Source: a virus
Length of the DNA: 64,000 nt
Reading direction: 5' to 3' (one strand)
Virus record (IMG/VR): IMGVR_UViG_3300050821_018642
Span: 5,133-69,132 of that record
The notes beneath the pieces are model-generated. The model was given only the letters and a program-made list of their open reading frames with translations. It was not told the DNA's origin and made no database searches. The position numbers and the translations under genes were made by a program. This document shows positions 11,806 to 49,214 of this stretch, one piece after another; the stretch's first letter is position 1, and every line of letters starts with the position of its first letter.

Positions 11806-12212
11806 TGGCTGGCGAGACTACCACTCCCAATATAGGATTGCAGATAGCCGGTTTCGACCAGCCAAATTGGCAGGTTCCCACCAATTACAACTGGAACTTG
11901 CTGGACCTTATTTTCGGCGGCGAGATACAGGTGCCTGCCCTGGACGTCAACGTGCTGACGGTCGCCAGCTTCGTCATCGCCAATTTCGTCGCCAGCGCGG
12001 CGGCGTCGTTCTTCGCCGAGACTCCCGGCGGCACCGTACCAGGAACCGTGTATACGTGCACGTACATACCGGGCGTGGTGCTGGGCGTGTACAAGAACGG
12101 AATCATTCAAAAACCGGGCGTCGGTTACGACTACACGATTTCAGGCAATCAAATCACGTTCTCAACCGCGACCTCTCTCGGAGACAAAATCTATGTCACG
12201 TACTTTCATTAG
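11805..12212 (+). CDS. small fibre protein with YKNG motif
   Basis: Shares GTVPGTVYT...VYKNGIIQKPGVGYDYTISGNQITF with ORF 405..995. Confidence 0.35.
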   Translation: MAGETTTPNIGLQIAGFDQPNWQVPTNYNWNLLDLIFGGEIQVPALDVNVLTVASFVIANFVASAAASFFAETPGGTVPGTVYTCTYIPGVVLGVYKNGIIQKPGVGYDYTISGNQITFSTATSLGDKIYVTYFH

Positions 12213-26141: not shown

Positions 26142-26471
26142 TTATAGACGTTGCACAGGCGGAAGGGCTAATACGCCGCGCAATTTGGTTAGGAAGCTCT
26201 GCGCTTTATCCAGGTCTTCCAGACCATTCTTCTGGAGCCAGCGTAGGATGTAGCGACAGATCTGCGACTCCAGGTATGGCATTCTGGCGAAGAGATCCCA
26301 ATGCTGTATCTCCTTACCACAATGTGGGCACTGACCACTGCATGCTGTGTAGTGCGTACCACCGACTTGCTGCACTACCGCTCCTTGCGTTTCCTTTTCC
26401 ACCGCCGCTACCAACATGCGACGCGTACTAGACTTCGTAGATGTCGAATCTTGATGAGCCTTCTTGACCAC
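26142..26471 (-). CDS. DUF3310-like phage protein
   Basis: QVGGTHYTA...CPHCG...HWDLF...PYLESQICRYILRW..KNG.EDL.KA matches my memory of the DUF3310 signature. Confidence 0.45.
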   Translation of the reverse strand: MVKKAHQDSTSTKSSTRRMLVAAVEKETQGAVVQQVGGTHYTACSGQCPHCGKEIQHWDLFARMPYLESQICRYILRWLQKNGLEDLDKAQSFLTKLRGVLALPPVQRL

Positions 26472-26991
26472 AGCATTCCTCCCATGTAGTGTATACAGCG
26501 TGAATGACCTCGGCTTCCAACGGACTCAACGTGTCGTCCGGGAATGTACGACGGATGTAGTCCTTCCACCGTCGTACGCTGAAGTTCACTTTGCGATTCC
26601 CCATAGCGCGCTCGTCGCAACACCAAAGAATACCGTCCAAGCGATCAGCAAGATCCAGTATACGTCGCTCTTCGAGCGTCAACGGAAATAGCAGATCATA
26701 CTTGGACAGAGTATCAGTTTCCAACTTCTCGAATTTTGCTGAAAACTCTGGGCCCATTTCCCACTTGAACGGTGCTGGCATATCACCGGAAGCTTGCTCG
26801 GCTAGATCGTGCGTGGCTGCCATCATCAGTAGATTGGAGCTAGGCATACCATCGCTTAGAAAGAACACCAGCAGAATAACGCCGTGTTGATGTTGTGCGT
26901 TGGTATTACGTAGAATACCCATACGCGTATGGAATCGCGTTACCAGACCGCCTTCGTGTGCGAACTGTATACGCTCTTTGATTGACTTCAC
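26428..26991 (-). CDS. HD-domain phosphohydrolase (YfbR-like 5'-deoxynucleotidase candidate)
   Basis: H...H(x21)HD...E...GD metal-binding motif spacing: HTRMGILRNTNAQHQHGVILLV...ATHDLAEQASGD. Confidence 0.55.
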   Translation of the reverse strand: MKSIKERIQFAHEGGLVTRFHTRMGILRNTNAQHQHGVILLVFFLSDGMPSSNLLMMAATHDLAEQASGDMPAPFKWEMGPEFSAKFEKLETDTLSKYDLLFPLTLEERRILDLADRLDGILWCCDERAMGNRKVNFSVRRWKDYIRRTFPDDTLSPLEAEVIHAVYTTWEECCGQEGSSRFDIYEV

Positions 26992-28094
26992 TTCTGCCTC
27001 CGCTCAATCCACTCATTACACGCGCGCTTCCAATCCGGCGCTTCTATACCGTCAAGACAGGTGAACATACTGTATGAATCTTTCCATTTGCGATACGTCC
27101 AGGTTAGGAACATCGGAATAGCAACGGTCTCCATGAAAGCTGTATTCATGGGCGGTACGTTGAACGCCGCTTCCCACGCCGCTGGTGTCGGGTCGTTGAT
27201 ACCTACAGTATCAGGCGGTTGTGGTTGACGTATAAGACCGCGCGCCCACGTCATGAACTTCGATAGGTCCTCATCGAAGCCGGGTTCCAGCGCCGGACCC
27301 ATGTCTGGAAGCTTACCTAGTGAATCGCTCTCCAGCGCAATTTGTTCCAGCTTCTCTCGGTTAAAGACATCGGTATAGACATGAAAGTTGTTACTAAACT
27401 GCCGATACACACCCATCGGAATGCCGATGCGCATTGCCATGTACTCGTGGAAGAAACTGAAGTGCACGGCGTTGGCTCCGTAGCAACCCCATATGATGTC
27501 ATTGCTGCGATTGCATACGGTAATATTCAACTTCCCACCGCGACAATCCAGATATACGTGCGTATTGCACGGAACATCCAGACCACCGTGGGTGGCTACC
27601 TGTAGGTCGTGGTCATGTAGATCTGGATTGTCGCGATTCATCGTGCGATTCTGATCGTAATCCCCGGCTCCAGGCCAAGCATTCCACATCGTCAGCACAC
27701 ATCGCCTGGATTTAGGGTCTTTCTTTAACTCTGCTATGATGGCCTCCAGCTGGTCCCAGCCGAAGAAGTTGCGCCAACGCCAGCCGTATGCACCCCACGA
27801 TGTAACGCCGTCGTCGCTATAGGCGCGCATCTGCTTAGCGAAGTATTCGACGAACTCTACGTCGTTGGCACCGCTGAGAATCCAGAGCGATTCCATAACG
27901 TGGAAGAAAGGATTTGCATCACGTAGCGGGCTGAATAGCACGCGGCGACGTGGGTTTACGTACTCCGTAAGCACTGGACCCGGTGCAACGATCACCGAGC
28001 CATTGCGCGATTGTTCCTCTACGCCTTCACGTAGAAGATAGTTGATGCCGATCTGTAATGCGGCATTTACATCATCGGTCTTAAAGCTATACAT
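26988..28094 (-). CDS. thymidylate synthase-family enzyme (dUMP hydroxymethylase candidate)
   Basis: Aligns to ThyA along its length: ESLWILSG, YGWRWRNFFGWDQLEAII..LK.DPKSRRCVLTMWN, VPCNTHVYL..GGKL..CNRSNDIIWG.YGAN. His147 of ThyA is replaced by Asn, and there is a ~100-aa C-terminal extension. Start ATG at 28094 has a GAGGAG RBS. Confidence 0.65.
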   Translation of the reverse strand: MYSFKTDDVNAALQIGINYLLREGVEEQSRNGSVIVAPGPVLTEYVNPRRRVLFSPLRDANPFFHVMESLWILSGANDVEFVEYFAKQMRAYSDDGVTSWGAYGWRWRNFFGWDQLEAIIAELKKDPKSRRCVLTMWNAWPGAGDYDQNRTMNRDNPDLHDHDLQVATHGGLDVPCNTHVYLDCRGGKLNITVCNRSNDIIWGCYGANAVHFSFFHEYMAMRIGIPMGVYRQFSNNFHVYTDVFNREKLEQIALESDSLGKLPDMGPALEPGFDEDLSKFMTWARGLIRQPQPPDTVGINDPTPAAWEAAFNVPPMNTAFMETVAIPMFLTWTYRKWKDSYSMFTCLDGIEAPDWKRACNEWIERRQK

Positions 28095-28965
28095 ACGTCT
28101 CCTCGCTCGGTGTGAAGTGCTGCTTCGCTCTACGTCCAAGGTATTTTACCTTGAAGTACTTTCCTATTTCGCAAAGTGTGTTCTGCGTGTCTTGGGCCGA
28201 CAGACCGTGCAGTTCGCTCGGTAGCTTCGGGAGTGCTGTATCCATCAACTTCAGTAACGTGCTGTGCCACTCTTCTTCATTCCAACGCTCTGTGACGTCG
28301 CGACCCGTTACCCAGTTCAAACCACGTCGCGAGCCTGGACCACTAGCGGCAAAGGTATGCCAGTCGTCAGCGTTCTTGCCGGCCGGAGTGTACTTGACAT
28401 CGCCCACTACCTGCGCTGCCATAAAGCCAGCACCGAATCCGTGGAACTGCATCAGCGAATTATGTAGTCCACGTAGTGATGTACAGGTACGCAGCTCTTC
28501 GCCCAGCGCTTTGCGTCCTGACCACAATGGACCCAGTACGCACGTAGACAGGTAGCTAGCCTTGCTTTGACCTTTGGTAGCGCCAACTGCATTTATCATA
28601 TACGCATTATTGTAGGCGCAAAGACCGCGCTCACGTCGTGCATCCATGATACGTACGAAGCGCTGCGGATTCCAGCGTTCTGGGTAGCCTAGTTCCTCCA
28701 TAGTGGCTGGTAGATTCACCAGCCGTGCAAGGCACATAGCGAATACCACGGTATCATAATCCGTGGCGTGCGGAAGAAGCCATGATCCGTGTATCCATTT
28801 AGTAACGCGGTCGTCGTTACGACGCACGTTCGTAAAGCGGTACTTCTGAAGTATTGGATCCTTGGTCCAGGGTGCTGGTTTACCTTCCAGACGACGTTGA
28901 TGGATGTTCCACCGCTCCGTTACGAAGTCAGTGAATTCCCTAAGCCTTGGAAACAGCTTGCTCAT
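28087..28965 (-). CDS. uncharacterised protein, candidate DNA-modification enzyme
   Basis: 292 aa with no P-loop; translationally coupled between the ThyA-homologue and the nucleotidyltransferase. Confidence 0.4.
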   Translation of the reverse strand: MSKLFPRLREFTDFVTERWNIHQRRLEGKPAPWTKDPILQKYRFTNVRRNDDRVTKWIHGSWLLPHATDYDTVVFAMCLARLVNLPATMEELGYPERWNPQRFVRIMDARRERGLCAYNNAYMINAVGATKGQSKASYLSTCVLGPLWSGRKALGEELRTCTSLRGLHNSLMQFHGFGAGFMAAQVVGDVKYTPAGKNADDWHTFAASGPGSRRGLNWVTGRDVTERWNEEEWHSTLLKLMDTALPKLPSELHGLSAQDTQNTLCEIGKYFKVKYLGRRAKQHFTPSEETYV

Positions 28966-29692
28966 ACGCCTCCAGTTGCTCTGGGGTGCCTACCACATGA
29001 AATTCCTTCTCCGGTATTTCGTGGAGAAGTACGTCGCCCATACGCAGCATATAACTGTGTACTGGAGCTAGGTAGAACTCGCCATTCGTGGAGTTGTCGT
29101 AGAATACCATAGCCGCGATTGCAGCACGTAGCCTACTCCACGTCTTAAATACGTGGACGCCGCACGTAGCCATGTCGCTGATAGGCTGCTTCTCCACGAT
29201 GCGTGTAACTTCTTGGCCTTCATACTCCACGAAGCTGTAACGCGCGCTACCGTCCGTCGGCTTGAACGTCAGCACCATGGATACGGTGGAACTGAGCGGA
29301 TGTGTGAAGTGCGCCTCCGCGTGCGCTACAAACGCCTTGATAAGCGCTGGATCGATGATACTGTCACAATCCATTACCAGCACCGGCTGGTCTTCGTCCA
29401 GGACGGCTGCGGCTGCAAGAAGCGTCATAGCCGCGCCGCGCTGCGTATGCTGTACGCCGATGATCTTAGGTACGCAATCCTCCGGCGCTTCCGTCCATAC
29501 ATCATGTCGAATGGATTGTGGACATAGTACGATGGCTTCGTGAATTTCCGTACCCAAAGACACAGCCATAGCCTGTCTAAGTGCATACCATATCATAGCA
29601 TGCCCGTTGACCGGTATGAGCGGTTTCATCTGTGTATAGCCAGCGCTTGCAAAGCGATCGCCGCGCCCAGCGGCTAGGATTACTACTTGCAT
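28940..29692 (-). CDS. sugar-1-phosphate (or phospho-alcohol) nucleotidyltransferase
   Basis: N-terminal MQVVILAAGRGDRF...KPLIPVNGHAMI NTP_transferase signature; RBS GGAGGA 6 nt before ATG 29692. Confidence 0.6.
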   Translation of the reverse strand: MQVVILAAGRGDRFASAGYTQMKPLIPVNGHAMIWYALRQAMAVSLGTEIHEAIVLCPQSIRHDVWTEAPEDCVPKIIGVQHTQRGAAMTLLAAAAVLDEDQPVLVMDCDSIIDPALIKAFVAHAEAHFTHPLSSTVSMVLTFKPTDGSARYSFVEYEGQEVTRIVEKQPISDMATCGVHVFKTWSRLRAAIAAMVFYDNSTNGEFYLAPVHSYMLRMGDVLLHEIPEKEFHVVGTPEQLEAYEQAVSKA

Positions 29693-30495
29693 TTGACTTC
29701 CTCCATTCGTTCTTCGAGATTCATTGCGAGGTTCAGTGCCCACTCCCTGGCATGTGGCTGTACCTTGTACAGCCGTACCAGGTGTGTAACGAGGTAGTAA
29801 GCGCAAAGTTCCAGGTTAAGCCGCTCCACTTGTAAGAACGCTTTGATCATCTCGCGTTCCACAACGTCACAGCTAGTGGTACAAGCTATGCTGTCATAAC
29901 CGAAGAACGACTGCAGAAGCTTGCCGCCGTCCAATTCAGCCTCTAGCGGAAGCGGTCTTGTGGATGGATCAATCCACAAGCCACCAGCCATGATGTTCTC
30001 CAGCGTAGGATCACCGTGTACATTCTTCACCATACGGTTTCCAGTTATCCAGCGTGCTCCGCCTTTCCACGTCTGTTTTAGTACTTCACGAAGCGCAGGT
30101 TCTGTTGCCAATTCAAGCTGCTCTTCGTAATCGTACGCACGATCACGCTCAGCTCCGCCTACCCAGTGTGGTACCTTCCACAACACTGATAAGCGTACAA
30201 GTGCATTAGCCGTGTCTTCCATCGTAGCTGGTCCAAGCATAGGCATGAAGTAAGAACACGCATTTTCGTCGGAATCACCGAATTCTACTTCCACGAATAT
30301 TTCTGGGAAATGTCGCATCTTTACAGCTTGACGCACCACTCCCGGTCCGCTCTTGCGTATCCATGGTTCCAGCGTCGCTCCGGAGTTACGCTTCACTTTG
30401 TTATCTATCACCACCACGTTCTCCTGTTCTCCGTACAAGTATTCTTCACAGTCCTTACACAACCCAGATGCCTCCATACAACGTGGACAGCTCAC
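29683..30495 (-). CDS. APH/choline-kinase-fold kinase (anomeric sugar kinase candidate) with N-terminal zinc ribbon
   Basis: Catalytic loop VHGDPTLENIM (HGDxxxxN) and LWIDPS; CPRC...CKDC at the N-terminus; GTGA overlap with the upstream gene. Confidence 0.5.
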   Translation of the reverse strand: MSCPRCMEASGLCKDCEEYLYGEQENVVVIDNKVKRNSGATLEPWIRKSGPGVVRQAVKMRHFPEIFVEVEFGDSDENACSYFMPMLGPATMEDTANALVRLSVLWKVPHWVGGAERDRAYDYEEQLELATEPALREVLKQTWKGGARWITGNRMVKNVHGDPTLENIMAGGLWIDPSTRPLPLEAELDGGKLLQSFFGYDSIACTTSCDVVEREMIKAFLQVERLNLELCAYYLVTHLVRLYKVQPHAREWALNLAMNLEERMEEVKCK

Positions 30496-31352
30496 TTCTT
30501 CACTCCGCTGGACTCGTAGGCCTTCTTCCAGGCCACCACCACTTCCTTGCGCTTGATGGAGCCCTTGTAATCGCGGTCCACCACTTTGACGAACGGCGCG
30601 TGCAGCTTCTGTAGTACGAAGCACTGTGCGTCGCTGTACTCCATGGAGCGCTCGCCCGAGCAGCCTCCGGCCGCACCGAAGCTTCCGTATTCGTTGTTCA
30701 GGAGCTCCACGAAGCTGTGACCCTGTTCGCCTTTACGCAGCATACTCAGTACAACGTGGAAGTCCTCGCGCAGCCCGACGGCATCGAATCGAATCTTGTA
30801 CTTCTTGTAGCGCTCCGGGTCTACACCGAAGGCGTACATCATCCGGCCGTTGATATGCCACGATTCCTTCTGCTTGTCGCTGTGGCGTCGGTGCGCTATA
30901 CCGAGCATGGCCGGTGCGTGAGTGCCGTAGCGGGCGTCCAGTTGCTCAAATAGCTTCAGCAGCACGGCGTCTTTGGGGTAGCGCCGCATCATCAAGGCGG
31001 TCCCGGTTGGAGCTCCAGGCTTGATGCCGTAGGCCTGTCGGTCTTCCTCCCATACACGCCACTTGGGTGGGCACCGTTCGAAGAACGCAATGTCGTCGTC
31101 CATCATAAACAGGAGACGATCTCCGTTCTTCGGTAGGTTCGTCATGATCCAGTGACGTTTGGCCGCGATGGACTTTGTGCCCTTCGCTAGAACCACCTCA
31201 TTGTCTGGGTACAGCGCTTGTAGCGCCTTGGCTTCTTCCGGAAGCGACGGAACCAGTACCACTTCCTTCTGTAACGACGTAGGCAGTGCGCCCAGCGTGA
31301 TCTGTTTGTTTACGCGTCCATGCGTAGGTATGACAAGCGTGATGTTCTTCAC
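30492..31352 (-). CDS. GT-A-like glycosyltransferase
   Basis: N-terminal ITLVIPTHGR and DxD-like FMMDDDIAF; RBS AAGGAG. Confidence 0.45.
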   Translation of the reverse strand: MKNITLVIPTHGRVNKQITLGALPTSLQKEVVLVPSLPEEAKALQALYPDNEVVLAKGTKSIAAKRHWIMTNLPKNGDRLLFMMDDDIAFFERCPPKWRVWEEDRQAYGIKPGAPTGTALMMRRYPKDAVLLKLFEQLDARYGTHAPAMLGIAHRRHSDKQKESWHINGRMMYAFGVDPERYKKYKIRFDAVGLREDFHVVLSMLRKGEQGHSFVELLNNEYGSFGAAGGCSGERSMEYSDAQCFVLQKLHAPFVKVVDRDYKGSIKRKEVVVAWKKAYESSGVKK

Positions 31353-35600: not shown

Positions 35601-35930
35601 TCAGGCGTTTCGCGCGGCGCACTCCGTACAGCGTGTAGTCAGGTCACGTAGCGCCGAGTACCTGTCCACGCGTACAGCGCTGTACAAGCGTAGCGTACGT
35701 ACATGGACGTGACGTAGCGGACTACGATGACGGTAGCCGCGCCGCTGAAGTTCGCGTACAAGCGCTGCGTGTCGACGCTCCAGGCTCTTGGGCTCCACGC
35801 AATTATGCGCAATGAAGCCTTCAATACGCCTTCCACGGCGTAGATGCCCAACGAACATGTGCAGTTCCACGTGCTCACCGAGTAGATGTTTGCGGCACAT
35901 CACACGCGGGTCCACCATCCACATTCTCAT
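35601..35930 (-). CDS. pyrimidine-dimer DNA glycosylase-like protein (Pyr_excise-like)
   Basis: Strong RBS AAGGAGG; N-terminus MRMWMVDPRVMCRKHLLGEHVELH resembles the MRLWSLHP..L...L..E family. Confidence 0.4.
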   Translation of the reverse strand: MRMWMVDPRVMCRKHLLGEHVELHMFVGHLRRGRRIEGFIAHNCVEPKSLERRHAALVRELQRRGYRHRSPLRHVHVRTLRLYSAVRVDRYSALRDLTTRCTECAARNA

Positions 35931-40609: not shown

Positions 40610-42109
40610 TTACCTACGTTTAACAGGCATCTTGCGCTTGTACTTCTTCTCGGCGTACTCCTTCATGGCGTCCAGAAAATCTTTCTGCTCCGTTCCCTTG
40701 CGCTTAAGATTTCGCATCTTTGCCACGTCTACAGTGTCGTCAGTGTAGAAAAGATGACGCATGACAAATTCAGCTTTATTACCCTGACGCCATACACGAC
40801 GAAACGCCTGATCGAAGTGATCGTAGTCGTCCGGTATAAAGAAGAACCCAACGTGACGCGCATTGAACTTCTGGAGATTCAGTGCATGTCCGGCCGAAGC
40901 TGGGTGGATCATCATCAACGGTAGCTGGCCCTTGTTCCAGGCTTCGATGTAGTCGGATGCTTGACCTCGCGTCGTCTTACTATTGATACAAGGAATATTC
41001 TTACCAAGAGCCTTGCGAATAGCGTCCACGTCGTGGTGGAAGCCTATGCAGAGTAGTAACGGTTCACCCTGCAGTTCGTTGTACAAGTCTACGACGGCGT
41101 CCACCTTGGCAGTATGTACGATCTTGTATGGACGCTCGCCGCTGTAGCGTTCGTCGTCGCTGTCTCGAGCGTCCAGGTATACAGCGCCATTGGCTATCTG
41201 CATACACTTGGCACGCGCCGAAGCACTGGAAGTCAGCGGCGCTGTGAATAGCGTACTCATGAGACTTTCCTCAATGGAGTCATACTCCTTCTGCACGCTG
41301 GCCGGCAACTCCACACGATGGTCGCGCTCCAACACCTTTGGAAGCTTCAAGTAATCGGCTGCATCCAGACGCAGAACTAGCGGAGCTACTAGCTTGTTGA
41401 TTTCCTTATCCTTACCTGGTACTAACTGCCATTCGTGCATCTGATAGCCAGTCTGGAAGAAGAAGTTATTGCGGTAATGCGAGATATACGAACCTAGTGC
41501 AGCTCCACGATCCAGGATGAAGATCTGTCCGAATAAGTCCAGGTAGTTACGCGGGCGCGGCGAGCCGGTCAGGATGTGCCGACGCTTGAAGTAGCCCTTC
41601 TCCACCAACGGCCGAAGACAACGGAAGCGTACCGTGGTGGGGTCCTTCCACCGCGACGACTCATCAATGATTAGCTCGTCGGCCTCCAGCATGTTGAGTC
41701 GCTTCTTACTGTCAGTGAGCCACTGGAAGCCTTCCGGATTGATCAGCGCGATAGGTTGATTGGTAAGCGTGCGTAGTGCGCGCTCCTTTCCAGGTCCATG
41801 AAGTAGAGCGATGTTGAGATCGTTGAAATCCTCCCAGCTACTTATCTGCTCCGGCCACACGTCGTATATAGCGCGTAGTGGTGCGACGATTAGTACGCGC
41901 TTTGTCAGGCGTTTCTTTAGAAGTATCTTTATGGATGCGAGGCTTATGCTCGTTTTCCCAAGTCCTGGATCTAGAAGTAGGCCGCTTTGTGCGAACTCCA
42001 GTACGAACTTCAGAGCTCGCTCTTGATACGCGTGCGGATTCCATGGCTCGGCGTTTGACTTCCACCCATTCATCTTCAGTGCTAACGACGCAGGTACTAT
42101 ATCCGTCAT
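40610..42109 (-). CDS. SNF2-family helicase
   Basis: Motif I LLLDPGLGKT, DESS (DExx box), and a C-terminal helicase domain. Confidence 0.75.
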   Translation of the reverse strand: MTDIVPASLALKMNGWKSNAEPWNPHAYQERALKFVLEFAQSGLLLDPGLGKTSISLASIKILLKKRLTKRVLIVAPLRAIYDVWPEQISSWEDFNDLNIALLHGPGKERALRTLTNQPIALINPEGFQWLTDSKKRLNMLEADELIIDESSRWKDPTTVRFRCLRPLVEKGYFKRRHILTGSPRPRNYLDLFGQIFILDRGAALGSYISHYRNNFFFQTGYQMHEWQLVPGKDKEINKLVAPLVLRLDAADYLKLPKVLERDHRVELPASVQKEYDSIEESLMSTLFTAPLTSSASARAKCMQIANGAVYLDARDSDDERYSGERPYKIVHTAKVDAVVDLYNELQGEPLLLCIGFHHDVDAIRKALGKNIPCINSKTTRGQASDYIEAWNKGQLPLMMIHPASAGHALNLQKFNARHVGFFFIPDDYDHFDQAFRRVWRQGNKAEFVMRHLFYTDDTVDVAKMRNLKRKGTEQKDFLDAMKEYAEKKYKRKMPVKRR

Positions 42110-42356
42110 CTTTCAATTTCTCCCTGTGCCAACGCTGTAACTTCTCACGTCCTGGTGATGTCTTTCCTTTAGGATCTTTGAACTCCACGATGAGTGGACG
42201 TCCTCCCGGTACCCAAAATACATGGTCGGGAAAACCAGCAGGATCGGTAACTTTACTTACTGTCCACCCATCGTTACGAGCATCTGCAACGCATTCACGT
42301 TCCAACTTGGATTCACGAGCGCGAGGGCGACGCATCTTCCAATTCTCCGCACCCAA
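41838..42356 (-). CDS. VRR-NUC domain nuclease (reading frame runs ~270 nt into the helicase gene)
   Basis: PAGFPDHVFWVPGGRPLIVEFKDPKGKTSPGREKLQRWHREKLKDDGYSTCVV is a VRR-NUC signature; the C-terminal ~70 aa are low-complexity. Confidence 0.5.
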   Translation of the reverse strand: MGAENWKMRRPRARESKLERECVADARNDGWTVSKVTDPAGFPDHVFWVPGGRPLIVEFKDPKGKTSPGREKLQRWHREKLKDDGYSTCVVSTEDEWVEVKRRAMESARVSRASSEVRTGVRTKRPTSRSRTWENEHKPRIHKDTSKETPDKARTNRRTTTRYIRRVAGADK

Positions 42357-42519
42357 TGCATTTACCGTCTTGGAAGTCGTGTCTAGTGCATGCTACCGAC
42401 GGTTTCACTTCTGGCTTACACTTACCAGCGTGACCTATTGGCTCCATGCAGTAAGTGTTACTGAGCATACGCCCGTGTTCATCGACAATGGTAGGTATAA
42501 CCTTTTGACATAGAATCAT
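42313..42519 (-). CDS. small zinc-ribbon protein
   Basis: Cys-rich 68-aa ORF. Confidence 0.3.
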   Translation of the reverse strand: MILCQKVIPTIVDEHGRMLSNTYCMEPIGHAGKCKPEVKPSVACTRHDFQDGKCIGCGELEDASPSRS

Positions 42520-43163
42520 AGCACGTCATCGTTTCCGGGCGCATACTCAACCCTGGGTTTACTTACGTCCACAAGTGCAGCCTTAACTGCCTTCTTCCAC
42601 TCCGCGTTGCCGGCTTCGCGGTCCTTCAGGTCCGCCCAGATAGATTGTAACCACCGTGCTTGATGCTGTGCGTCGGCTAGTGCGTTATGGCGCGTACCCT
42701 GGAACGCGGGCTCCGGCGTGCTGGCATGCTGCACCTTCATGGTGCGGAAACATTGACTGTTGTAGTACTTCCACGGCAACAAGATATTACATGCCTTGTA
42801 GGCGCACCCGAGTAGCACGTTGTCGAAGTCCGATCCATTACCCCATAACTTCGCACCTGATGGGAAGAACTCCGTAGCGAACTCTGTCAGTGCCCACGCA
42901 ATGTGATCACCGCCTGTCTTGGCCGCTTCAAATACGCGCCGCGCTGCTGGTTCTTGTTTTTCCCACCAGTCCAGCGTGGCTGTGTCGAACGTCAGTCCAG
43001 CTTGCCGGCAAGAAGTCATGGATATCACCGGCACCTCGAAGTTACGCCAGTCACGCTCCGCCATACCTGGTGCGAATGCCACTGCGCCTATGGCAATGAT
43101 ACCGCTTCCAGGCGCAGTCCCGACCGTCTCGAGGTCAAGCATTACATCGGTGTATGCAGTCAT
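42516..43163 (-). CDS. DEDDh 3'-5' exonuclease (DnaQ-like)
   Basis: Exo I MLDLETVG, Exo II WGNGSDFDNVLL, Exo III HNALADA. Confidence 0.6.
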   Translation of the reverse strand: MTAYTDVMLDLETVGTAPGSGIIAIGAVAFAPGMAERDWRNFEVPVISMTSCRQAGLTFDTATLDWWEKQEPAARRVFEAAKTGGDHIAWALTEFATEFFPSGAKLWGNGSDFDNVLLGCAYKACNILLPWKYYNSQCFRTMKVQHASTPEPAFQGTRHNALADAQHQARWLQSIWADLKDREAGNAEWKKAVKAALVDVSKPRVEYAPGNDDVL

Positions 43164-43342
43164 CGCGCCAGCCCCAGGTCGTGCTTGAACTTGATCCAAC
43201 GCAACTCTTCTTCAGCGGTCAGTATACGCGGTCCACCGTCGCCTGTCACGTACGGACGTGCGCCGTCTTCTTGCACGACCGTCAAGGCCGGTTTGCCATC
43301 GCGTTCTGTTATATTCCAACACTGCGATCTGCCCACGGTCAT
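43160..43342 (-). CDS. hypothetical small protein
   Basis: 60-aa ORF. Confidence 0.25.
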   Translation of the reverse strand: MTVGRSQCWNITERDGKPALTVVQEDGARPYVTGDGGPRILTAEEELRWIKFKHDLGLAR

Positions 43343-43551
43343 TTCGACACTCCCATTCTGATGTAGTTGACGGCCAACTTCTTGGCTTCCGCCAGCACCG
43401 CCGCGTCCTCCTTAGTTACACGTCCCAGCGCTCCGAATATGGTGGCGTCGTACGACGACTTCTCCACTTGGTCGGCTACGAATTCCAAGATATTACGTGT
43501 CGCGCTCTTGAGATCAGGCGCTGGCTTCTTTGCTGCTTTCTTTGTTGCCAT
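43339..43551 (-). CDS. hypothetical basic small protein
   Basis: 70 aa; MATKKAAKKPAP. Confidence 0.3.
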   Translation of the reverse strand: MATKKAAKKPAPDLKSATRNILEFVADQVEKSSYDATIFGALGRVTKEDAAVLAEAKKLAVNYIRMGVSK

Positions 43552-43719
43552 GTGTAAGCCTCGCTTCTATTTGTTGGTTGTGGATGGTAGCAATGTGCAA
43601 TCCTACGGGCCACTTCGTGGCGTACGCCACAATTACGTAGCTACCATCAGCTTGTACTGCGTAGATAGGATAAGCCGTCCTAATCATCACAGTCGCTTCA
43701 ATATCACTTTGTATCCACT

Positions 43720-44478
43720 TCACATCTTCTCCGGGCACGGGCCTCCTTTGGACTTCGCAAACTTACACCACTGACAATGCCGCCCGGTGCGAGTCTTGAA
43801 CGTGGTGTCCGTCATCATCTGACGGGTACGCGCTATCCACTCATTCTGTAGCGGCTTCAGGTTCTTCATGGTGAATTTCTCCGTGGCTGACTGGCCGGTA
43901 TCAGCGTACACATGCTGCGCCGTTAGCTGCACGGCTTTGTCACCACCAGCCAGCTGACCTATCTGCACCAGTCGTAGACCGCCCAGCGCGTACAGGCTAC
44001 GCTGCTGCTTATGCTCTGGATGCACGCGCCCAGTCTTCCAATCGATGATGTCCACCGTGGGCGGAGTAACTGTATCCGCGCAGATGTCGGTCTTGATACG
44101 CAGCCACGCAGCTTTCCAGTCGCGCCAATCTACCGGATTCCACTTCTTGTCGAAGGCCCACTCCTGCTCTGTACGCGCTTTGGCTGCGCGCATACGCATA
44201 AGCTGTTCCTTTATTGGCTCCATCTCCGGAGTAAGCTTCGGTACCTTACCTTTACCGCTTACAATGCTTGCAGCCGTGTCATGTACACGATTGCCCTTTA
44301 CGAACGCAGGATTCTCCGGCTCCTGGATGCGTATGCGCATGATTTTATCCAGGCACACGCTGAACGGGCAGTTGATGTATTGCTGGTAGACAGAATACGA
44401 CCAAGACGTTAGAGTTGCAAAGCGTCTCTTAGCCAATTGATGCTTCCTTCTCCGCCACGGCGGATGTTTCGGTTTCAT
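43720..44478 (-). CDS. Cas4/RecB-like PD-(D/E)xK nuclease with 4-Cys cluster
   Basis: N-terminal S.S..Y..CP and C-terminal CQWCKF...C; VDIIDWKTG core. Confidence 0.55.
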   Translation of the reverse strand: MKPKHPPWRRRKHQLAKRRFATLTSWSYSVYQQYINCPFSVCLDKIMRIRIQEPENPAFVKGNRVHDTAASIVSGKGKVPKLTPEMEPIKEQLMRMRAAKARTEQEWAFDKKWNPVDWRDWKAAWLRIKTDICADTVTPPTVDIIDWKTGRVHPEHKQQRSLYALGGLRLVQIGQLAGGDKAVQLTAQHVYADTGQSATEKFTMKNLKPLQNEWIARTRQMMTDTTFKTRTGRHCQWCKFAKSKGGPCPEKM

Positions 44479-44902
44479 CCACGGTATACACCGCTACGTG
44501 ATCGTCCAGGTGACCCAGCGCCATCGGGATAAGCCACCGTAAGTTCGGCATTACGTTACTTGGTAATCCTTTGACGTAGAACGGGCCGACTATTTCGTCC
44601 TCCGTTGTAGCGCCGTGATTGACTACAACATCGTTGAAGCAGTGGAAGAATACAACGTTGAAGCCGTCGCCACGCAGAACCAAGAACTTATCCCAGATAT
44701 ACTTGGCCGTGTCGACGCCAGTTTCCTCCTTGAACTCGCGACACATAGCTTCGATTGGCAGTTCGCCTGATTCTATCTTACCGCCAACGCCGTTCCACTT
44801 ATCCACCATGTGGGGAACGTTTGCTGGTGCGCGTTTCTTCTTGATTAGAAGAACACGCGTCTTATCGCTGCTGAATGCGAATCCTACTACGTACTCTTTC
44901 AT
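44429..44902 (-). CDS. Nudix hydrolase
   Basis: Nudix box GGKIESGELPIEAMCREFKEETGV; AAGGAG RBS 9 nt before ATG 44902. Confidence 0.6.
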   Translation of the reverse strand: MKEYVVGFAFSSDKTRVLLIKKKRAPANVPHMVDKWNGVGGKIESGELPIEAMCREFKEETGVDTAKYIWDKFLVLRGDGFNVVFFHCFNDVVVNHGATTEDEIVGPFYVKGLPSNVMPNLRWLIPMALGHLDDHVAVYTVDETETSAVAEKEASIG

Positions 44903-45036
44903 CTTCATCTTCTCCTTCTTTGTTCGTTCTGCGTATACTGCGTCACTCTCCACGTACGCACCATGACCAGGCTCGAAGAAGTCAGGTACGTACACTGCGT
45001 CCGGATGACTGGCCGGCAACATCCGTCTGGAAAGAT

Positions 45037-45585
45037 TCACGGCTTAACTCCTTGTGTACTTACATCTCCGTTGTAACGACCTCGTTTTGCATACGACGCC
45101 CACTCCGGTACGGACGTATGCTTGAAGAATACCATCTGACCTATCTTATCACCCTGGCGTAGCTTGACTGTATGACGTCTAGTCATGTTCTTCAACTCCA
45201 GGGTAAGCACCGAGCCATGCCAACCTGCATCACACCACCCGGCATTTGCGTGATCTACGCCGGTACGCGCTAGTGACGACTTCAGCTTGTACTCAGCGCT
45301 GATCCAATCAGGTAGGTTGAATACCTGCTCGCTCTGCGCCAGTATGAACTCACCCGGTTCCAGGCTGTAGTAATCGTCGTCCGCATCAGCAAACATCCAT
45401 TCACGCATTCCAAGTAATGATTCACGTTTTCGAATGTCAACAACATGCTCGTTACGTGATTCATACAGTATCTTGTTTCCAAGCGTGATGTCGATGGACG
45501 TCGAATTTACGTGTTCTGGTAAGGAGTTAGTGATGACTCCGGCCTTCTGCAACTCGAGAAGCTCTGTGTAACTTAGTAGACTCAT
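45037..45585 (-). CDS. dcd: dCTP deaminase family protein
   Basis: SIDITLG, GWCDAGWHG..TLE and GQMVFF motifs; AAGGAGG RBS. Confidence 0.6.
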   Translation of the reverse strand: MSLLSYTELLELQKAGVITNSLPEHVNSTSIDITLGNKILYESRNEHVVDIRKRESLLGMREWMFADADDDYYSLEPGEFILAQSEQVFNLPDWISAEYKLKSSLARTGVDHANAGWCDAGWHGSVLTLELKNMTRRHTVKLRQGDKIGQMVFFKHTSVPEWASYAKRGRYNGDVSTQGVKP

Positions 45586-47522
45586 GCTACCTCCTTGAAT
45601 TTTTCCAGGAATCCCCAATTGGGCCCTACTTCACCGTCGCTCAACATTGGGATGTCTGTTTCAATGCTAAGCATGCATTCCTTCATGATTTTCTGTTCTT
45701 CCTTCATAGCTTTAGGTGGGCAGCTGAAGTTGATCTCGTCATAGACAGTTACCACGAACCTACCGCGACGCTTAGGATGACTATCATACCTGATTAGTGT
45801 CTCCTTAGTAACGTCTGCACCACTTCCTTGTAGCAGATAGTTCAATAATTTGTACTCATAGGTCATATCACGCCCGTAGAACTCACTGTACGTTGGCGGT
45901 TCGCAGTAGTACAACCTACCGCCCCACGTCCTGATGGGCGCGCCGTTAGGCCCATAACTCTTATCACGAGCCAGTTCCTTGAGCTGATCATCCAGTTCCT
46001 TGATGGACGGAACCGCTGCGTTGATGGCTCGCTGGATGATCTGCGCTACCGGCTTATCCTCTTCAGGAAGATGCAAGGCGTCCATCAGTCCGCTCAGACC
46101 CTGTCCGTACACACGACCGAACACGCAGGTCTTAGCCGTATCTCGATCGAAGCTATCACGTAGCATAGCCTCAATCAAGCGTCGCTCGGCCTCAGCACGC
46201 ACATTCTCATGTATGTCGAACTTAGGGTCATTAAGAAAGCCTTGCATTACCTGGCCTTCTTCGAAGTGACCGAAGAGCCTTAATTCTTGCTGATTGAAAT
46301 CGCGCTTTCCCCATTGCTCGCCATTGTCAGGTAAACAGTACTGACGCATATAAGGTAGCTCCGGTACCCTTAGCCAAGCTGGATGTACATACCCGGAGCT
46401 AGCCGCGCGCTTCCATTTTTTAGGAATGTTCAGGAAGTTCGGTCTGGAGCATATAATCCGACCACTTCGTGCGCCAGACATATCCTTACCGCCATTGCGC
46501 GAACTACGCACCTGCGACCAGTTAGGGAACAGCGATCCGTGACCGACTGTACCTAGTTCCAACCAAGGCTCAGCGAACATATTGATACACGTCGCCATCT
46601 GTCCACGGTACTGAAGAGCGTGATACACACGCTTATCCTTGAAGCGGTCCAGTATCAGGTACTTCTTACTGACACTGAGCTGCCCCTTGGGCGTGCGTTT
46701 GAATTCAGTAACAATACCTTTGTTGTAAAGTGCCTCACCCAGCTGGCGGTCGCTATCGATGTTATCGATGCCGAGGCGCTTCCTGAGCCACACATCAGCC
46801 TTTTCAACTCCGGCCTTCATCGCCGGCAGATCGCGCTCTAGGCCGTCCACGTCCGTACGCATACCTACACGTGCGTTACGTAGTAGGATTGGCATTAAAC
46901 GACGATCGCGGTCGTACGCCTTACCCATCTCCGCATCTATAATGCGTGGATACAGAAGGTTGAATAGCCTACCAGTGCGTACTAGATCTCCCTTGTGGTA
47001 TGGCTTCACTATTTGATACGGGCACATCCATAGATACTGACCCCATTCACTAGGCTTCTTCTTAGCCTCCGGAACATTGGCTAGTACCCACTCCTTGACG
47101 CGATCCTGCTCCTCCGGCGGGATACCGAGTAACCGTTCTGCCGTAGGCTTCAACGCTAGCGACTCAGCGTGCGGATCATCCAGGAACGTCAGATACATAG
47201 TATCATAGGTACGTTCCCATGGTAAAATTGGTAAATCCCAGTGCGCCTCAGCCACATCATGGTCGAATGATCCATACTGTGTAAGTATTGGATAGCGGCT
47301 GTTGTACGCCTTGACTAGCTCACCGCGCCCCTGCTTCTCCGTGCAGTTATTACCGTGAGCCTTAGTACCATCGCCGTGACCCCACGCCATCAATATGTAA
47401 TCCGACCGGTCAGGCCACTTGAGTGCCAGCGACACCGCTTTGGGTGGGTAGTTAGGACGAGGTAGAATACCCTTAGTCTCAAAATCGAAGATTATACAAT
47501 CGGGAGCCTTAGTGCGTGGCAC
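45582..47522 (-). CDS. DNA polymerase I family (3'-5' exonuclease plus polymerase; no 5' nuclease domain)
   Basis: Exo I IFDFET; motif A region RRLMPIL; motif B R....K...FGRVYG; motif C VYDEINF; GTG start with GGAG RBS. Confidence 0.85.
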   Translation of the reverse strand: MPRTKAPDCIIFDFETKGILPRPNYPPKAVSLALKWPDRSDYILMAWGHGDGTKAHGNNCTEKQGRGELVKAYNSRYPILTQYGSFDHDVAEAHWDLPILPWERTYDTMYLTFLDDPHAESLALKPTAERLLGIPPEEQDRVKEWVLANVPEAKKKPSEWGQYLWMCPYQIVKPYHKGDLVRTGRLFNLLYPRIIDAEMGKAYDRDRRLMPILLRNARVGMRTDVDGLERDLPAMKAGVEKADVWLRKRLGIDNIDSDRQLGEALYNKGIVTEFKRTPKGQLSVSKKYLILDRFKDKRVYHALQYRGQMATCINMFAEPWLELGTVGHGSLFPNWSQVRSSRNGGKDMSGARSGRIICSRPNFLNIPKKWKRAASSGYVHPAWLRVPELPYMRQYCLPDNGEQWGKRDFNQQELRLFGHFEEGQVMQGFLNDPKFDIHENVRAEAERRLIEAMLRDSFDRDTAKTCVFGRVYGQGLSGLMDALHLPEEDKPVAQIIQRAINAAVPSIKELDDQLKELARDKSYGPNGAPIRTWGGRLYYCEPPTYSEFYGRDMTYEYKLLNYLLQGSGADVTKETLIRYDSHPKRRGRFVVTVYDEINFSCPPKAMKEEQKIMKECMLSIETDIPMLSDGEVGPNWGFLEKFKEVA

Positions 47523-47531
47523 AGCGTTCTC

Positions 47532-47834
47532 CTAGAGTTCAAGTGCAGGTAAGCCAGCAAGTCGTTCACTTAGACGCAAATTCGCCAGTCGTATATCTTC
47601 CTTCAACGACTTGGCAACTTCCTTGTGTAAGTCCCGATGCCACGTATCATGTACGTCCAGGTTATGTTGATCCACCTGCGCGCCGCAAGTTATACAAGCG
47701 TACACTACGCCACCGTTATAAGACGTTTCTTCACCCTGGTGGAAACGAGCCATTACATTTGAGTGACGATCTACTCCATCATCACAGGCTCCAGCGTGTC
47801 CACCACTTCCCTTGTCGCACTCACCGTAGCTCAC
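47532..47834 (-). CDS. small zinc-ribbon protein
   Basis: GTGA overlap start with AAGGAGG RBS; Cys pairs CDKG...C and CITC. Confidence 0.3.
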   Translation of the reverse strand: MSYGECDKGSGGHAGACDDGVDRHSNVMARFHQGEETSYNGGVVYACITCGAQVDQHNLDVHDTWHRDLHKEVAKSLKEDIRLANLRLSERLAGLPALEL

Positions 47835-48058
47835 GACGCCTCCTTCTTCAATGCTTCTAGTTCGTTCGCCCGTCGTACGGCGCTTAGACGGCCGTAGATA
47901 CGCTTGATACGCGTCTTCCGACCGTCCGCCGTAGCTGCTGCCAGCCAGCACTGAAGTTCCACTTCATCCGTACACTCCAAGAGTACACGGTTCAGTTCCG
48001 GCCAGTTCAACGCAAGTACTTCTTCGACTGTCATGCGATAACGCTCGTACCGCGCCAC
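47831..48058 (-). CDS. hypothetical protein
   Basis: 75-aa ORF. Confidence 0.3.
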   Translation of the reverse strand: MARYERYRMTVEEVLALNWPELNRVLLECTDEVELQCWLAAATADGRKTRIKRIYGRLSAVRRANELEALKKEAS

Positions 48059-48213
48059 CGACGCTTGCGATCTATAGCTTTCCTCTTCGTATATTTACGC
48101 TTGACTGGTGTGTCGCCACGTAATATACTTGCCACCTTCTCCATGCGAGTGGCCATTTCTCGATGATGCGCAGCTTCCTTCAACAACGATGCTACAATCT
48201 TTTCCCTGTCCAT
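48031..48213 (-). CDS. hypothetical protein
   Basis: 60 aa; GGAGGA RBS. Confidence 0.3.
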   Translation of the reverse strand: MDREKIVASLLKEAAHHREMATRMEKVASILRGDTPVKRKYTKRKAIDRKRRWRGTSVIA

Positions 48214-48413
48214 TTAGATATCCTCCTACGAAGTAGTAGGACGCCGCTGCCAAGGCGACGTCCTTCGTTAGATCGAGCGTTACTACTGCTTCTTTACAGC
48301 AGCCTGGACAAATGGTTTACACATTTCCAGTAATTGCGCTGCTATGTCGAAGAACTTAGCAACTGCTAAGTCACGCTTCACTTGCGCTGCGTTAGTATAT
48401 GCGCTTGCCATTG

Positions 48414-49214
48414 TTACTTCTTCGCCTTTACACCGGCGAACTTCTTGCTCTTACCAGCAGCGCTCTTCGGCGCTGTCTTCTTATCAGACGGCGCTGGATA
48501 CGGCGTCTGTAATACATCCTGAATCTTCAGGAAGCGCTTCTCCAATGCCGTGAGGATATCATCGTCCTCGATGAGTTCCACCATCTTGAATTCCAGGCGA
48601 ATCTGCGTAGCTTCATCGTCCTGGCTGTCAATCTGGGTGACCACGGCCCACGGCGGACGCCCGTACTCTTCTTCCAGCATGGACACGTAGGTCTTGTAGC
48701 GCTTGAGGTTGGTTGGTGAGATGCCTGCGGTAGCGATCTCTGACGAAGCAGCAGTAGCGCCGTCCTCCACGTCCTTGGATAGTAACACGCCCAATCGCAG
48801 CGTATTAGCGCAAGCCTTGCCTTTACCGACCTTGGCCGTGCCAAAAACGTTCTTCTCACAATCGGCACACAGAACAGACTGTTTTTCCTTGACCGTAGCG
48901 TGCGGTGCCATGGATGGATCATCGGCAACGATCGCGAATGCGTAGCAGTCAGGTGGCTGCTTATTATCCTTGTCGTAACCGGCCTTGAACCACCGATTAT
49001 GCGCGCAGCTGCCTAGGATGATACAATCCAGCTTGGAACCGCTGATCTTAGTGCCGCCAACGCTGACACTGTTATGGCCCCAGCTGATTCCAATACCACC
49101 GCCGCCAATGCTCTTGACTTGCTCAGTAGTCTCCTTGGCGTACTGCGCGAACTTCTCTTTCCACGGCACGATTGCTGTGGACTTACCTTTTGCTGCCGTT
49201 TTCTTAGGTGCCAT
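48414..49214 (-). CDS. basic zinc-binding protein (nucleic-acid-binding candidate)
   Basis: Lys-rich termini, CxxC..CxxC cysteines and an acidic segment. Confidence 0.4.
   Translation of the reverse strand: MAPKKTAAKGKSTAIVPWKEKFAQYAKETTEQVKSIGGGGIGISWGHNSVSVGGTKISGSKLDCIILGSCAHNRWFKAGYDKDNKQPPDCYAFAIVADDPSMAPHATVKEKQSVLCADCEKNVFGTAKVGKGKACANTLRLGVLLSKDVEDGATAASSEIATAGISPTNLKRYKTYVSMLEEEYGRPPWAVVTQIDSQDDEATQIRLEFKMVELIEDDDILTALEKRFLKIQDVLQTPYPAPSDKKTAPKSAAGKSKKFAGVKAKK

Follow-up and report, generated by a model that had tools for sequence, protein, structure and literature searches.

What do a nucleotide deaminase and a Nudix hydrolase do directly behind the DNA polymerase gene of a phage that may modify its thymidine? 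The question is raised by a 64,000-nt stretch of viral DNA (positions 5,133 to 69,132 of IMG/VR record IMGVR_UViG_3300050821_018642; hereafter the window), in which genes for a dCTP deaminase and a Nudix hydrolase follow a family A DNA polymerase gene. Phages that replace thymidine must make a new nucleotide and also starve their polymerase of dTTP. The enzymes of the first step are known; genes for the removal of dTTP and dTMP have not been assigned in most lineages. The candidates here are an MTH1-like Nudix protein, a DUF5664 protein and a YfbR-like HD protein. We consider it moderately probable that the deaminase feeds a homologue of thymidylate synthase (ThyA), that the Nudix protein removes an unwanted pyrimidine deoxynucleoside triphosphate (dNTP), and that the HD, DUF3310 and DUF5664 proteins assist. 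The strategy is a known one, and its parts are partly unusual: a dCTP deaminase stands in for a dCMP deaminase, an MTH1-like Nudix protein with an altered base pocket recurs, and the modification cluster has a glycosyltransferase and a sugar nucleotidyltransferase and is without a P-loop kinase.

The deaminase gene (45037-45585, minus strand) encodes 182 aa. The product matches the Pfam DCD family (PF22769) with an E-value of 8e-30 and 104.3 bits against a cut-off of 27, and it passes the TIGR02274 equivalog model (101.9 bits, cut-off 92.8). The motifs KSSLARTG and HANAGWCDAGWHGSVLTLELKN retain the equivalents of Ser, Arg, His112, Ala115, Asp119 and Glu130, and the catalytic set K102, S103, S104, R107, D119 and E130 aligns to the Mycobacterium tuberculosis enzyme. 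The Ser, Arg and Asp belong to the KSS..R and DxGxxG motifs, and E130 is the equivalent of the catalytic Glu (E138 in E. coli, E129 in M. tuberculosis); His112 and Ala115 are the dTTP-sensing positions of the M. tuberculosis enzyme. In a 43-member alignment of the closest relatives, Lys-Ser, Arg, His112, Asp119 and Glu130 are invariant, and Ser104 and Ala115 are nearly so. The AlphaFold2 model (pLDDT 92.8) has the dUTPase-type beta jelly-roll fold, with TM scores of 0.75-0.84 to the M. tuberculosis, Bacillus halodurans and E. coli enzymes. A look-up of the exact sequence matched only a 36-kb copy of the same phage.

Bacterial and archaeal enzymes that combine dCTP deaminase and dUTPase activities, such as M. 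tuberculosis Rv0321 (PDB 2qxx/2qlp) and the enzymes of B. halodurans (4xjc) and Methanocaldococcus jannaschii (1ogh), share the fold and are of similar length. They also share the Ser/Arg/Asp/Glu catalytic set and the dTTP-sensing His112/Ala115 positions. In a profile search of solved structures these three bifunctional enzymes came first (65-78 bits), with E. coli Dcd at 50 bits. The phage protein is thus probably of the dUMP-forming dCTP deaminase:dUTPase class. It differs from the bifunctional enzymes in being only 27-30% identical to them, in being phage-encoded and in probably forming part of a polymerase operon, and dUMP formation is here a prediction.

The likely recipient of the deaminated nucleotide is encoded some distance away on the same strand. 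The ThyA homologue (26988-28139, minus; 383 aa) is the only thymidylate-synthase homologue of the window (Pfam Thymidylat_synt 7e-14; phrog_5131 2e-106) and has its catalytic Cys in the motif DVPCNTH. In GANAVHF it carries an Asn where the cytosine-specific CMP hydroxymethylase MilA has an Asp; with this uracil-type residue in place of the MilA Asp, the enzyme should act on a uracil nucleotide. Its scores do not come near any of the NCBIfam cut-offs for thymidylate synthase. With 39% identity to the enzyme of Stenotrophomonas phage Sonora, it belongs to a divergent phage family found in Yua-like phages and Sonora, whose enzyme was termed a putative dUMP hydroxymethyltransferase in the Lydia paper. 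We infer that the homologue is a dUMP hydroxymethylase that consumes dUMP, a reading in which hydroxymethylation and methylation are not separable by sequence. Canonical thymidylate synthase, ThyX, dUTPase, dCMP deaminase and P-loop dNMP kinase were not detected in the window.

The genes around the ThyA homologue form a cluster, which in transcription order encodes a TET/JBP-associated glycosyltransferase (TAGT)-like protein (30492-31352; Pfam TAGT 5.7e-15, phrog_842 4e-36), an open reading frame (ORF) without assignment, a sugar-1-phosphate nucleotidylyltransferase-like protein (28940-29806; Pfam NTP_transferase 9e-14, NCBIfam GlmU and RmlA below cut-offs), a PF18723 protein (28087-28965), the ThyA homologue, the YfbR-like HD protein and the DUF3310 protein, all on the minus strand. 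PF18723 is the helical domain of 5-hydroxymethyl-deoxyuridine (5-hmdU) DNA kinase (Pfam HMUDK_hel 1.8e-42), and the best identity of the protein, 33%, is again to Yua-like phages and Sonora. The TAGT-like gene adjoins a PF18723 gene in four other loci (L080 5660-7359, L063 5599-7283, L144 2419-4100 and L095 17432-19000), which represent several lineages. This pairing, which has no evident precedent in the literature searched, together with the nucleotidylyltransferase may point to a sugar-bearing, base-J-like hydroxymethyluracil rather than to the amino-acid-derived modifications described so far. aGPT-Pplase was not detected in the window. Inside the thymidine-modification cluster of one uncultured phage (L034, 4568-5626) there is a myo-inositol-1-phosphate synthase-like gene (Pfam 4.9e-33), which hints at another side chain.

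Relatives of the deaminase tie it to such clusters. An alignment-based scan of IMG/VR found 265 relatives; 80 loci were fetched with 10-kb flanks and searched with the window proteins. One of them (L093) is of the same lineage as the window and has polymerase, deaminase and Nudix genes in that order. Elsewhere the deaminase lies within the modification genes: the order is PF18723 gene, ThyA homologue, deaminase, HD gene in one locus (L147) and PF18723 gene, ThyA homologue, HD gene, deaminase in another (L137). In a third (L144) the deaminase and the replication module come after the complete cluster. In L095/096, L112 and L169 the deaminase is part of the replication module, and TAGT-like and/or PF18723 genes are found at the far end of that module. 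PF18723 genes occur within 10 kb in 6 of the 80 deaminase loci, compared with anywhere in 222 of 50,697 GenBank phage records; this comparison is rough, as the databases differ and the loci are related.

The same clusters are served by a different deaminase elsewhere. In Sonora the gene placed just after the polymerase gene encodes a zinc-dependent dCMP deaminase, and this enzyme type is present, and a dCTP deaminase absent, in Sonora and in all five non-redundant cluster loci that bear the Nudix gene. Conversely, tblastn gave no match to a dCMP deaminase in the 80 dCTP deaminase loci. The two deaminases are therefore best seen as alternative suppliers of deoxyuridine nucleotides for these clusters. 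This alternation agrees with the published pathway logic (PMC8989533; PMC12686479): phages with hydroxymethyluracil (hmU) depend on a dUMP hydroxymethylase and a deaminase, together with dTTPase, dTMPase and kinase activities (PMC8989533). Given the complementary distribution and the deaminases inside clusters, a role in supplying deoxyuridine nucleotides to the ThyA homologue of a modified-thymidine pathway is well supported by sequence comparison. The first-pass annotation had proposed this supply role, and the uracil-type Asn, the deaminases within ThyA/HD clusters and the dCMP deaminases found in their place elsewhere all speak for it. It had also called the pattern typical of phages with modified thymidine, which holds in part: a dCTP deaminase has been reported for YerA41 and Carin-5 (PMC12686479), but the classical hmU phages use a dCMP deaminase (PMC8989533), as does Sonora.

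The second gene behind the polymerase is that of the Nudix hydrolase (44429-45040 as the long ORF, 203 aa, minus strand; Pfam NUDIX 1e-11). Its Nudix box, GKIESGELPIEAMCREFKEETGV, is a perfect match to GX5EX7REUXEEXGU when read from the sequence, and the box residues are invariant in the family. A profile of 65 family sequences finds MTH1/NUDT1 as the best match (E 3e-11, residues 20-134), above bacterial MutT, NudG (a CTP pyrophosphohydrolase) and BdRppH. The AlphaFold2 model has a pLDDT of 92.3, and the top 26 Foldseek matches are all MTH1, with TM scores of about 0.65. The motif NGVGGK aligns with WNGFGGK of MTH1, which holds the base-contacting Asn33, and the conserved C-terminal PNLxWLIPMAL of the family aligns with WPDDSYWFPLLL of MTH1. 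Vertebrate MTH1/NUDT1 is likewise a single-domain Nudix protein, similar over nearly the full length of the profile; a WNG(F/V)GGK motif and a P-x-x-x-x-W-x-x-P-x-x-L segment at the C-terminus are common to both. Identity is only about 22-27%, and the phage family has at least 475 members in IMG/VR.

The base pocket is where the phage protein and MTH1 part. In MTH1 the Asp119/Asp120 pair recognises oxidised purines (8-oxo-G and 2-oxo-A). In the phage family these positions hold a near-invariant Asn (N123 in the numbering of alignment A1) and a variable residue, which is Leu in the window protein. Because the Asp pair is replaced, base preference cannot be read off MTH1. The signature reportedly described by Dunn and colleagues in 1999 for ADP-ribose pyrophosphatases is a proline that comes about 16 residues beyond the Nudix box; the segment that follows the box here, DTAKYIWDKFLVLRGDGFN, contains no proline, and no ADP-ribose pyrophosphatase is among the best sequence or fold matches. 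The protein is probably a dNTP pyrophosphohydrolase acting on the deoxynucleotide pool, to judge from its closest sequence and fold relatives.

The wider Nudix family was found with an alignment-based scan of IMG/VR, which gave 475 relatives, of which 80 loci were fetched; a scan with the single protein found nothing, and an exact look-up of the 203-aa form found no contig. One of the 80 loci (L012) is of the window's own lineage. A second lineage of five non-redundant contigs (L080, L063/064, L034, L030 and L039), with polymerases 25-27% identical to that of the window, has the order PF18723 gene, modification enzymes, ThyA homologue, HD gene (where detected), one or two small ORFs, Nudix gene and polymerase gene. 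In an unbiased clustering of neighbouring genes, two families that are not confined to one lineage group recurred most often beside the Nudix gene: the family A polymerase (in 9 loci) and the ThyA homologue (in 7). Exclusion of dTTP or dUTP is a plausible role for the Nudix protein in this phage.

Several observations weigh against the explanation as a whole or against parts of it. The deaminase has similar TM scores to the enzymes of E. coli and M. tuberculosis, and Foldseek does not separate mono- from bifunctional deaminases; no sequence signature known to us does so either. In about 74 of the 80 deaminase loci no modification cluster appeared within 10 kb, and the deaminase family also occurs in cultured phages for which no thymidine modification is known. 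A search of the window did not reveal the P-loop part of the 5-hmdU DNA kinase, and the P-loop kinase of Sonora has no tblastn match there either, so that the chemistry downstream of hydroxymethylation is uncertain. A ThyA homologue is missing within 10 kb in about 72 of the 80 Nudix loci, among them those of T4-like and jumbo phages, in which the Nudix gene lies among other genes of replication and nucleotide metabolism. The cluster-linked Nudix genes themselves split into two separate clades in a neighbour-joining tree, and this Nudix protein is absent from Yua, Sonora, other GenBank phages with a PF18723 gene and the characterised thymidine-modifying phages. The two clades and this absence indicate that the general function of the family is not specific to thymidine modification. 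A special Nudix subfamily for thymidine modification was also considered and was rejected on account of the two clades.

Two other accounts of the deaminase and two of the Nudix protein have to be weighed with these points in mind. The deaminase might only boost ordinary dTTP synthesis, with the ThyA homologue being a true thymidylate synthase. dCTP deaminases are indeed frequent in phiEco32-like, Thermus and haloarchaeal viruses, which are not known to be modified, and most deaminase loci are without modification genes within 10 kb. However, the ThyA homologue is in the divergent Yua- and Sonora-like family of putative dUMP hydroxymethyltransferases described in the Lydia paper, lies far under the thymidylate synthase cut-offs of NCBIfam, and is clustered with PF18723 and TAGT-like genes; we regard ordinary dTTP synthesis as highly improbable. 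It is more improbable still that the protein is a dUTPase only, as are some archaeal proteins annotated as dCTP deaminases. Such cases exist in the superfamily (PMC5122711) and archaeal dUTPases are among the fold matches, but the phage family keeps the deaminase Glu without exception, the score against the archaeal dUTPase model is 34.9 bits (cut-off 130) when the TIGR02274 cut-off is passed, and the distribution of the protein is complementary to that of dCMP deaminase. A supply of deoxyuridine nucleotides for hydroxymethylation accordingly stays the preferred account of the deaminase.

For the Nudix protein, the most serious alternative is general house-cleaning, in which an antimutator dNTP pyrophosphohydrolase for damaged nucleotides such as 8-oxo-dGTP is retained beside the polymerase gene for the sake of fidelity and plays no specific part in replacing thymidine. 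The MTH1/MutT-like character of the family fits such a role, as do its 475 IMG/VR relatives in very different phages (jumbo and T4-like among them), mostly with no modification cluster nearby, and its absence from the characterised thymidine-modifying phages. The residues by which MTH1 recognises oxidised purines are nevertheless exchanged, and the family has been recruited beside modules of ThyA homologue, HD and polymerase genes in two separate clades; we think house-cleaning possible, if rather unlikely. Action on RNA 5' ends, as an RppH-like enzyme or in NAD-cap removal that would speed the decay of host mRNA, seems very unlikely. When the single sequence is compared with solved structures, 3ees comes first (E 9e-6); we take this to be the Bdellovibrio RNA pyrophosphohydrolase BdRppH, and there are weak NCBIfam RppH and Dcp2 matches; MTH1, however, is clearly first in both profile and fold searches over nearly the full length, and the neighbouring genes belong to replication and nucleotide metabolism. 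Removal of an unwanted pyrimidine dNTP is thus the reading we retain for the Nudix protein. In its most specific form, the exchange of the Asp pair for Asn/Leu would have retuned the enzyme from oxidised purines to pyrimidines, making it the dTTP/dUTP pyrophosphatase of hmU phages, in series with a YfbR-like HD dTMPase; this version is doubtful. A dTTPase activity is known from PhiW-14, and its genome paper names no gene for it (PMC5977210). The first-pass annotation had gone further in suggesting that the phage excludes the canonical dNTP. That suggestion is unsupported, as no gene here can be assigned to the task and the Nudix family is found mostly away from modification clusters.

The HD protein (26428-26991, minus strand) is a YfbR-like 5'-deoxynucleotidase and a candidate dTMPase. 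It matches Pfam YfbR-like (8e-9; 35.8 bits against 25.9) and falls below the NCBIfam YfbR equivalog (20 bits, cut-off 122). Its motif HDLAEQASGD aligns to HDASEVLTGD of YfbR, both following HDxxExxxGD. Genes for HD homologues adjoin a ThyA homologue (there named "pyrimidine hmase") in Bordetella phages, PhiJL001, Rhodoferax phage P26218, Manatee Spring phages and several uncultured phages, and the Yua homologue lies about 2 kb from the Yua PF18723 gene. The HD protein is thus a conserved partner of the hydroxymethylase and a good dTMPase candidate. The presence of both HD and DUF5664 genes also brought to mind a 2-aminoadenine phage with PurZ, DatZ and MazZ; this was rejected, as the 383-aa neighbour of the HD gene is the ThyA homologue and not PurZ.

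The last gene of the cluster, which the first-pass annotation did not list, encodes a DUF3310 protein (26142-26471, minus strand) and is a candidate nucleotide kinase gene. The Pfam DUF3310 match is weak (E 0.0047), and the protein matches PHROG "nucleotide kinase" families at 1.6e-7. A DUF3310 gene follows the ThyA homologue in Sonora (L011, 7569-8078) and the HD gene in the window and in Rhodoferax phage P26218 (12786-12962), which are unrelated phages. The protein may be a kinase of 5-hydroxymethyl-dUMP (hm-dUMP).

A phage-type, MazG-like dATP/dGTP pyrophosphohydrolase had been proposed at 58160-58876 (minus strand). No DUF550/MazG domain was found in this protein, but it does carry a DUF5664 (PF18909) domain (Pfam 1.3e-11; 44.8 bits against 27), which is N-terminal and covers residues 53-140 only. 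No homologue was found among solved structures or GenBank phages. In a 2026 study, the stand-alone DUF5664 protein of Arthrobacter phage Wayne converted dATP, dUTP and dGTP to their monophosphates (PMC12884076), which lends the enzymatic part of the proposal some substance. Like the Wayne protein, that of the window scores above the PF18909 cut-off and stands alone without DUF550; the enzyme of an Acinetobacter phage, in contrast, carries the partner DUF550 domain. The window protein is very distant from that of Wayne, which is a 2-aminoadenine phage with an enzyme that prefers dATP. By analogy, a dNTP pyrophosphohydrolase is a reasonable assignment. Just downstream of this gene is one for a 143-aa DnaJ (J) domain protein (57634-58065, minus strand; 3.8e-7).

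A place in the dNTP pool had further been suggested for the HD protein and for a metallophosphoesterase. The suggestion fits the HD protein, which widely neighbours the ThyA homologue, and not the metallophosphoesterase-like protein (60160-60771, minus strand), for which no link to nucleotide pools emerged. The latter has no Pfam match; it belongs to a common phage phosphoesterase family (PHROG 547 "phosphoesterase", 4e-43) and weakly matches the metallophosphoesterase aq_1665. The DxH and GNHD motifs are kept, and GY replaces the metal-bridging GD of relatives, so that one metal-binding Asp is lost. The closest relative found (50% identical) lies near PNKP and RNA ligase genes in an uncultured phage (L006). 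A nucleotide-pool role was rejected on these grounds.

Taken together, these parts suggest the following pathway, in which every substrate, and the modified base itself, is predicted from sequence. The homotrimeric, dUTPase-fold deaminase would turn dCTP into dUMP or, should it be monofunctional, into dUTP. Either product would supply the ThyA homologue, which would form 5-hydroxymethyl-dUMP. The most likely task of the Nudix protein in this phage would be to cleave an unwanted pyrimidine dNTP, dTTP and/or dUTP, down to the monophosphate, and the HD protein would dephosphorylate dTMP. Depletion of dTTP would also release the deaminase from feedback inhibition, a step that is suggested by the retention of the dTTP-sensing His112 and Ala115. 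The DUF3310 protein may phosphorylate hm-dUMP, with the DUF5664 protein as another candidate dNTP pyrophosphohydrolase. The family identities, the conserved residues, the gene order and the recurrence with modification clusters are direct observations. Such a gene set helps in the prediction of modified genomes in metagenomic data; in practice it brings a modest gain, as the pathway logic is already established.

The phages with hmU or hypermodified thymidine that have been characterised (SPO1, SP8, PhiW-14, M6 and ViI; Lee et al. 2018, 2021) have in common with the window a ThyA-homologue hydroxymethylase and a deaminase of cytosine nucleotides. Candidate hydrolases of dTMP and dTTP, and genes for post-replicative modification, are likewise found in both. 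The window differs in having a dCTP and not a dCMP deaminase, as do YerA41 and Carin-5. Its candidate hydrolases, the Nudix, DUF5664 and HD proteins, are assigned by family only. In place of a P-loop 5-hmdU DNA kinase and aGPT-Pplase, neither of which was detected in the window, it has the TAGT-like glycosyltransferase and the sugar nucleotidyltransferase. Sonora and the Yua-like Mesyanzhinovviridae also resemble the window. As in the window, they carry their ThyA homologue, PF18723, DUF3310 and family A polymerase genes in a single module, in which a deaminase gene comes right after the polymerase gene, and Yua has an HD homologue. In contrast to the window, their deaminase is the zinc-dependent dCMP enzyme, they have no Nudix gene, and aGPT-Pplase and a P-loop kinase are present; the polymerases are about 25% identical.

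The window is part of a phage genome in which structural genes lie on the plus strand (approximately 1-25 kb) and genes for replication and nucleotide metabolism on the minus strand (26-64 kb). The named genes were all confirmed at their positions on the minus strand, with the deaminase and Nudix genes directly downstream of the polymerase gene, and their hidden Markov model scores are far beyond chance. A blastn search of 43000-48000 against GenBank phages gave no match, so the phage is distantly related to cultured phages at best. The polymerase (45582-47522, minus strand; Pfam DNA_pol_A 1.4e-38), encoded immediately upstream of the deaminase/Nudix pair, is 77% identical to that of an uncultured relative (L003/L012). 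Its closest cultured relatives, at 39% identity, come from Pseudoxanthomonas phage PW916 and Stenotrophomonas phage AXL3. In these two phages a RecB-like nuclease gene directly follows the polymerase gene, without the deaminase/Nudix insert; the fetched region of PW916 also holds ThyX. In the window, the gene after the Nudix gene encodes a PD-(D/E)XK (RecB/Cas4-like) nuclease (43720-44478, minus strand; Pfam PDDEXK_1 4e-13), and this is followed by genes for an Rv2179c-like exonuclease and an SNF2 helicase.

The junctions between these genes are tight. The start codon of the deaminase gene, the ATG at 45585, shares the sequence ATGA with the stop codon of the polymerase gene and has AAGGAGG 5 nt upstream; public gene callers recorded the same 182-aa product (P0121). 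The GTG at 45040, which is the start of the long Nudix ORF, overlaps the deaminase stop codon as GTGA, with AAGGAG 7 nt upstream. Alternative ATG starts at 44908 and 44902 lie behind a second AAGGAG and would give a protein of about 157-159 aa. Nudix homologues are 140-150 aa long, the 43 N-terminal residues of the long form are not conserved in the closest relative, and the nearest relative has stop codons upstream of the conserved start; these features indicate that the short form is the conserved protein. A start at 44908 or 44902 is thus more likely than one at 45040, as far as sequence comparison can tell. This leaves approximately 130 nt (44903-45036, minus strand) between the deaminase stop and the conserved Nudix start, where the nearest relative has a 4-nt gene overlap instead; from GTG 45040 onward the segment has no stop codon in the Nudix frame, but it is not conserved. 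The order polymerase, deaminase, Nudix is kept in the uncultured relative L003, again with 4-nt overlaps. A scan of 42000-48500 for promoters and terminators gave counts equal to those in shuffled sequence and no minus-strand terminator, a result that does not speak for or against an operon. Co-transcription and translational coupling of the deaminase gene with its neighbours, the polymerase gene upstream and the Nudix gene downstream, are probable.

Other genes of the window are of separate interest. The replication module includes a gene for a DenV-like pyrimidine-dimer DNA glycosylase (35601-35930, minus strand; Pfam Pyr_excise 7.6e-15). Two very long ORFs are found in the structural region on the plus strand (12193-16953, 1586 aa, and 17014-22845, 1943 aa). 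An 864-aa protein (61357-63951, minus strand) matches the shoulder domain of the major vault protein (2.5e-21) and the vault repeat domain (4e-10), which is unusual for a phage.

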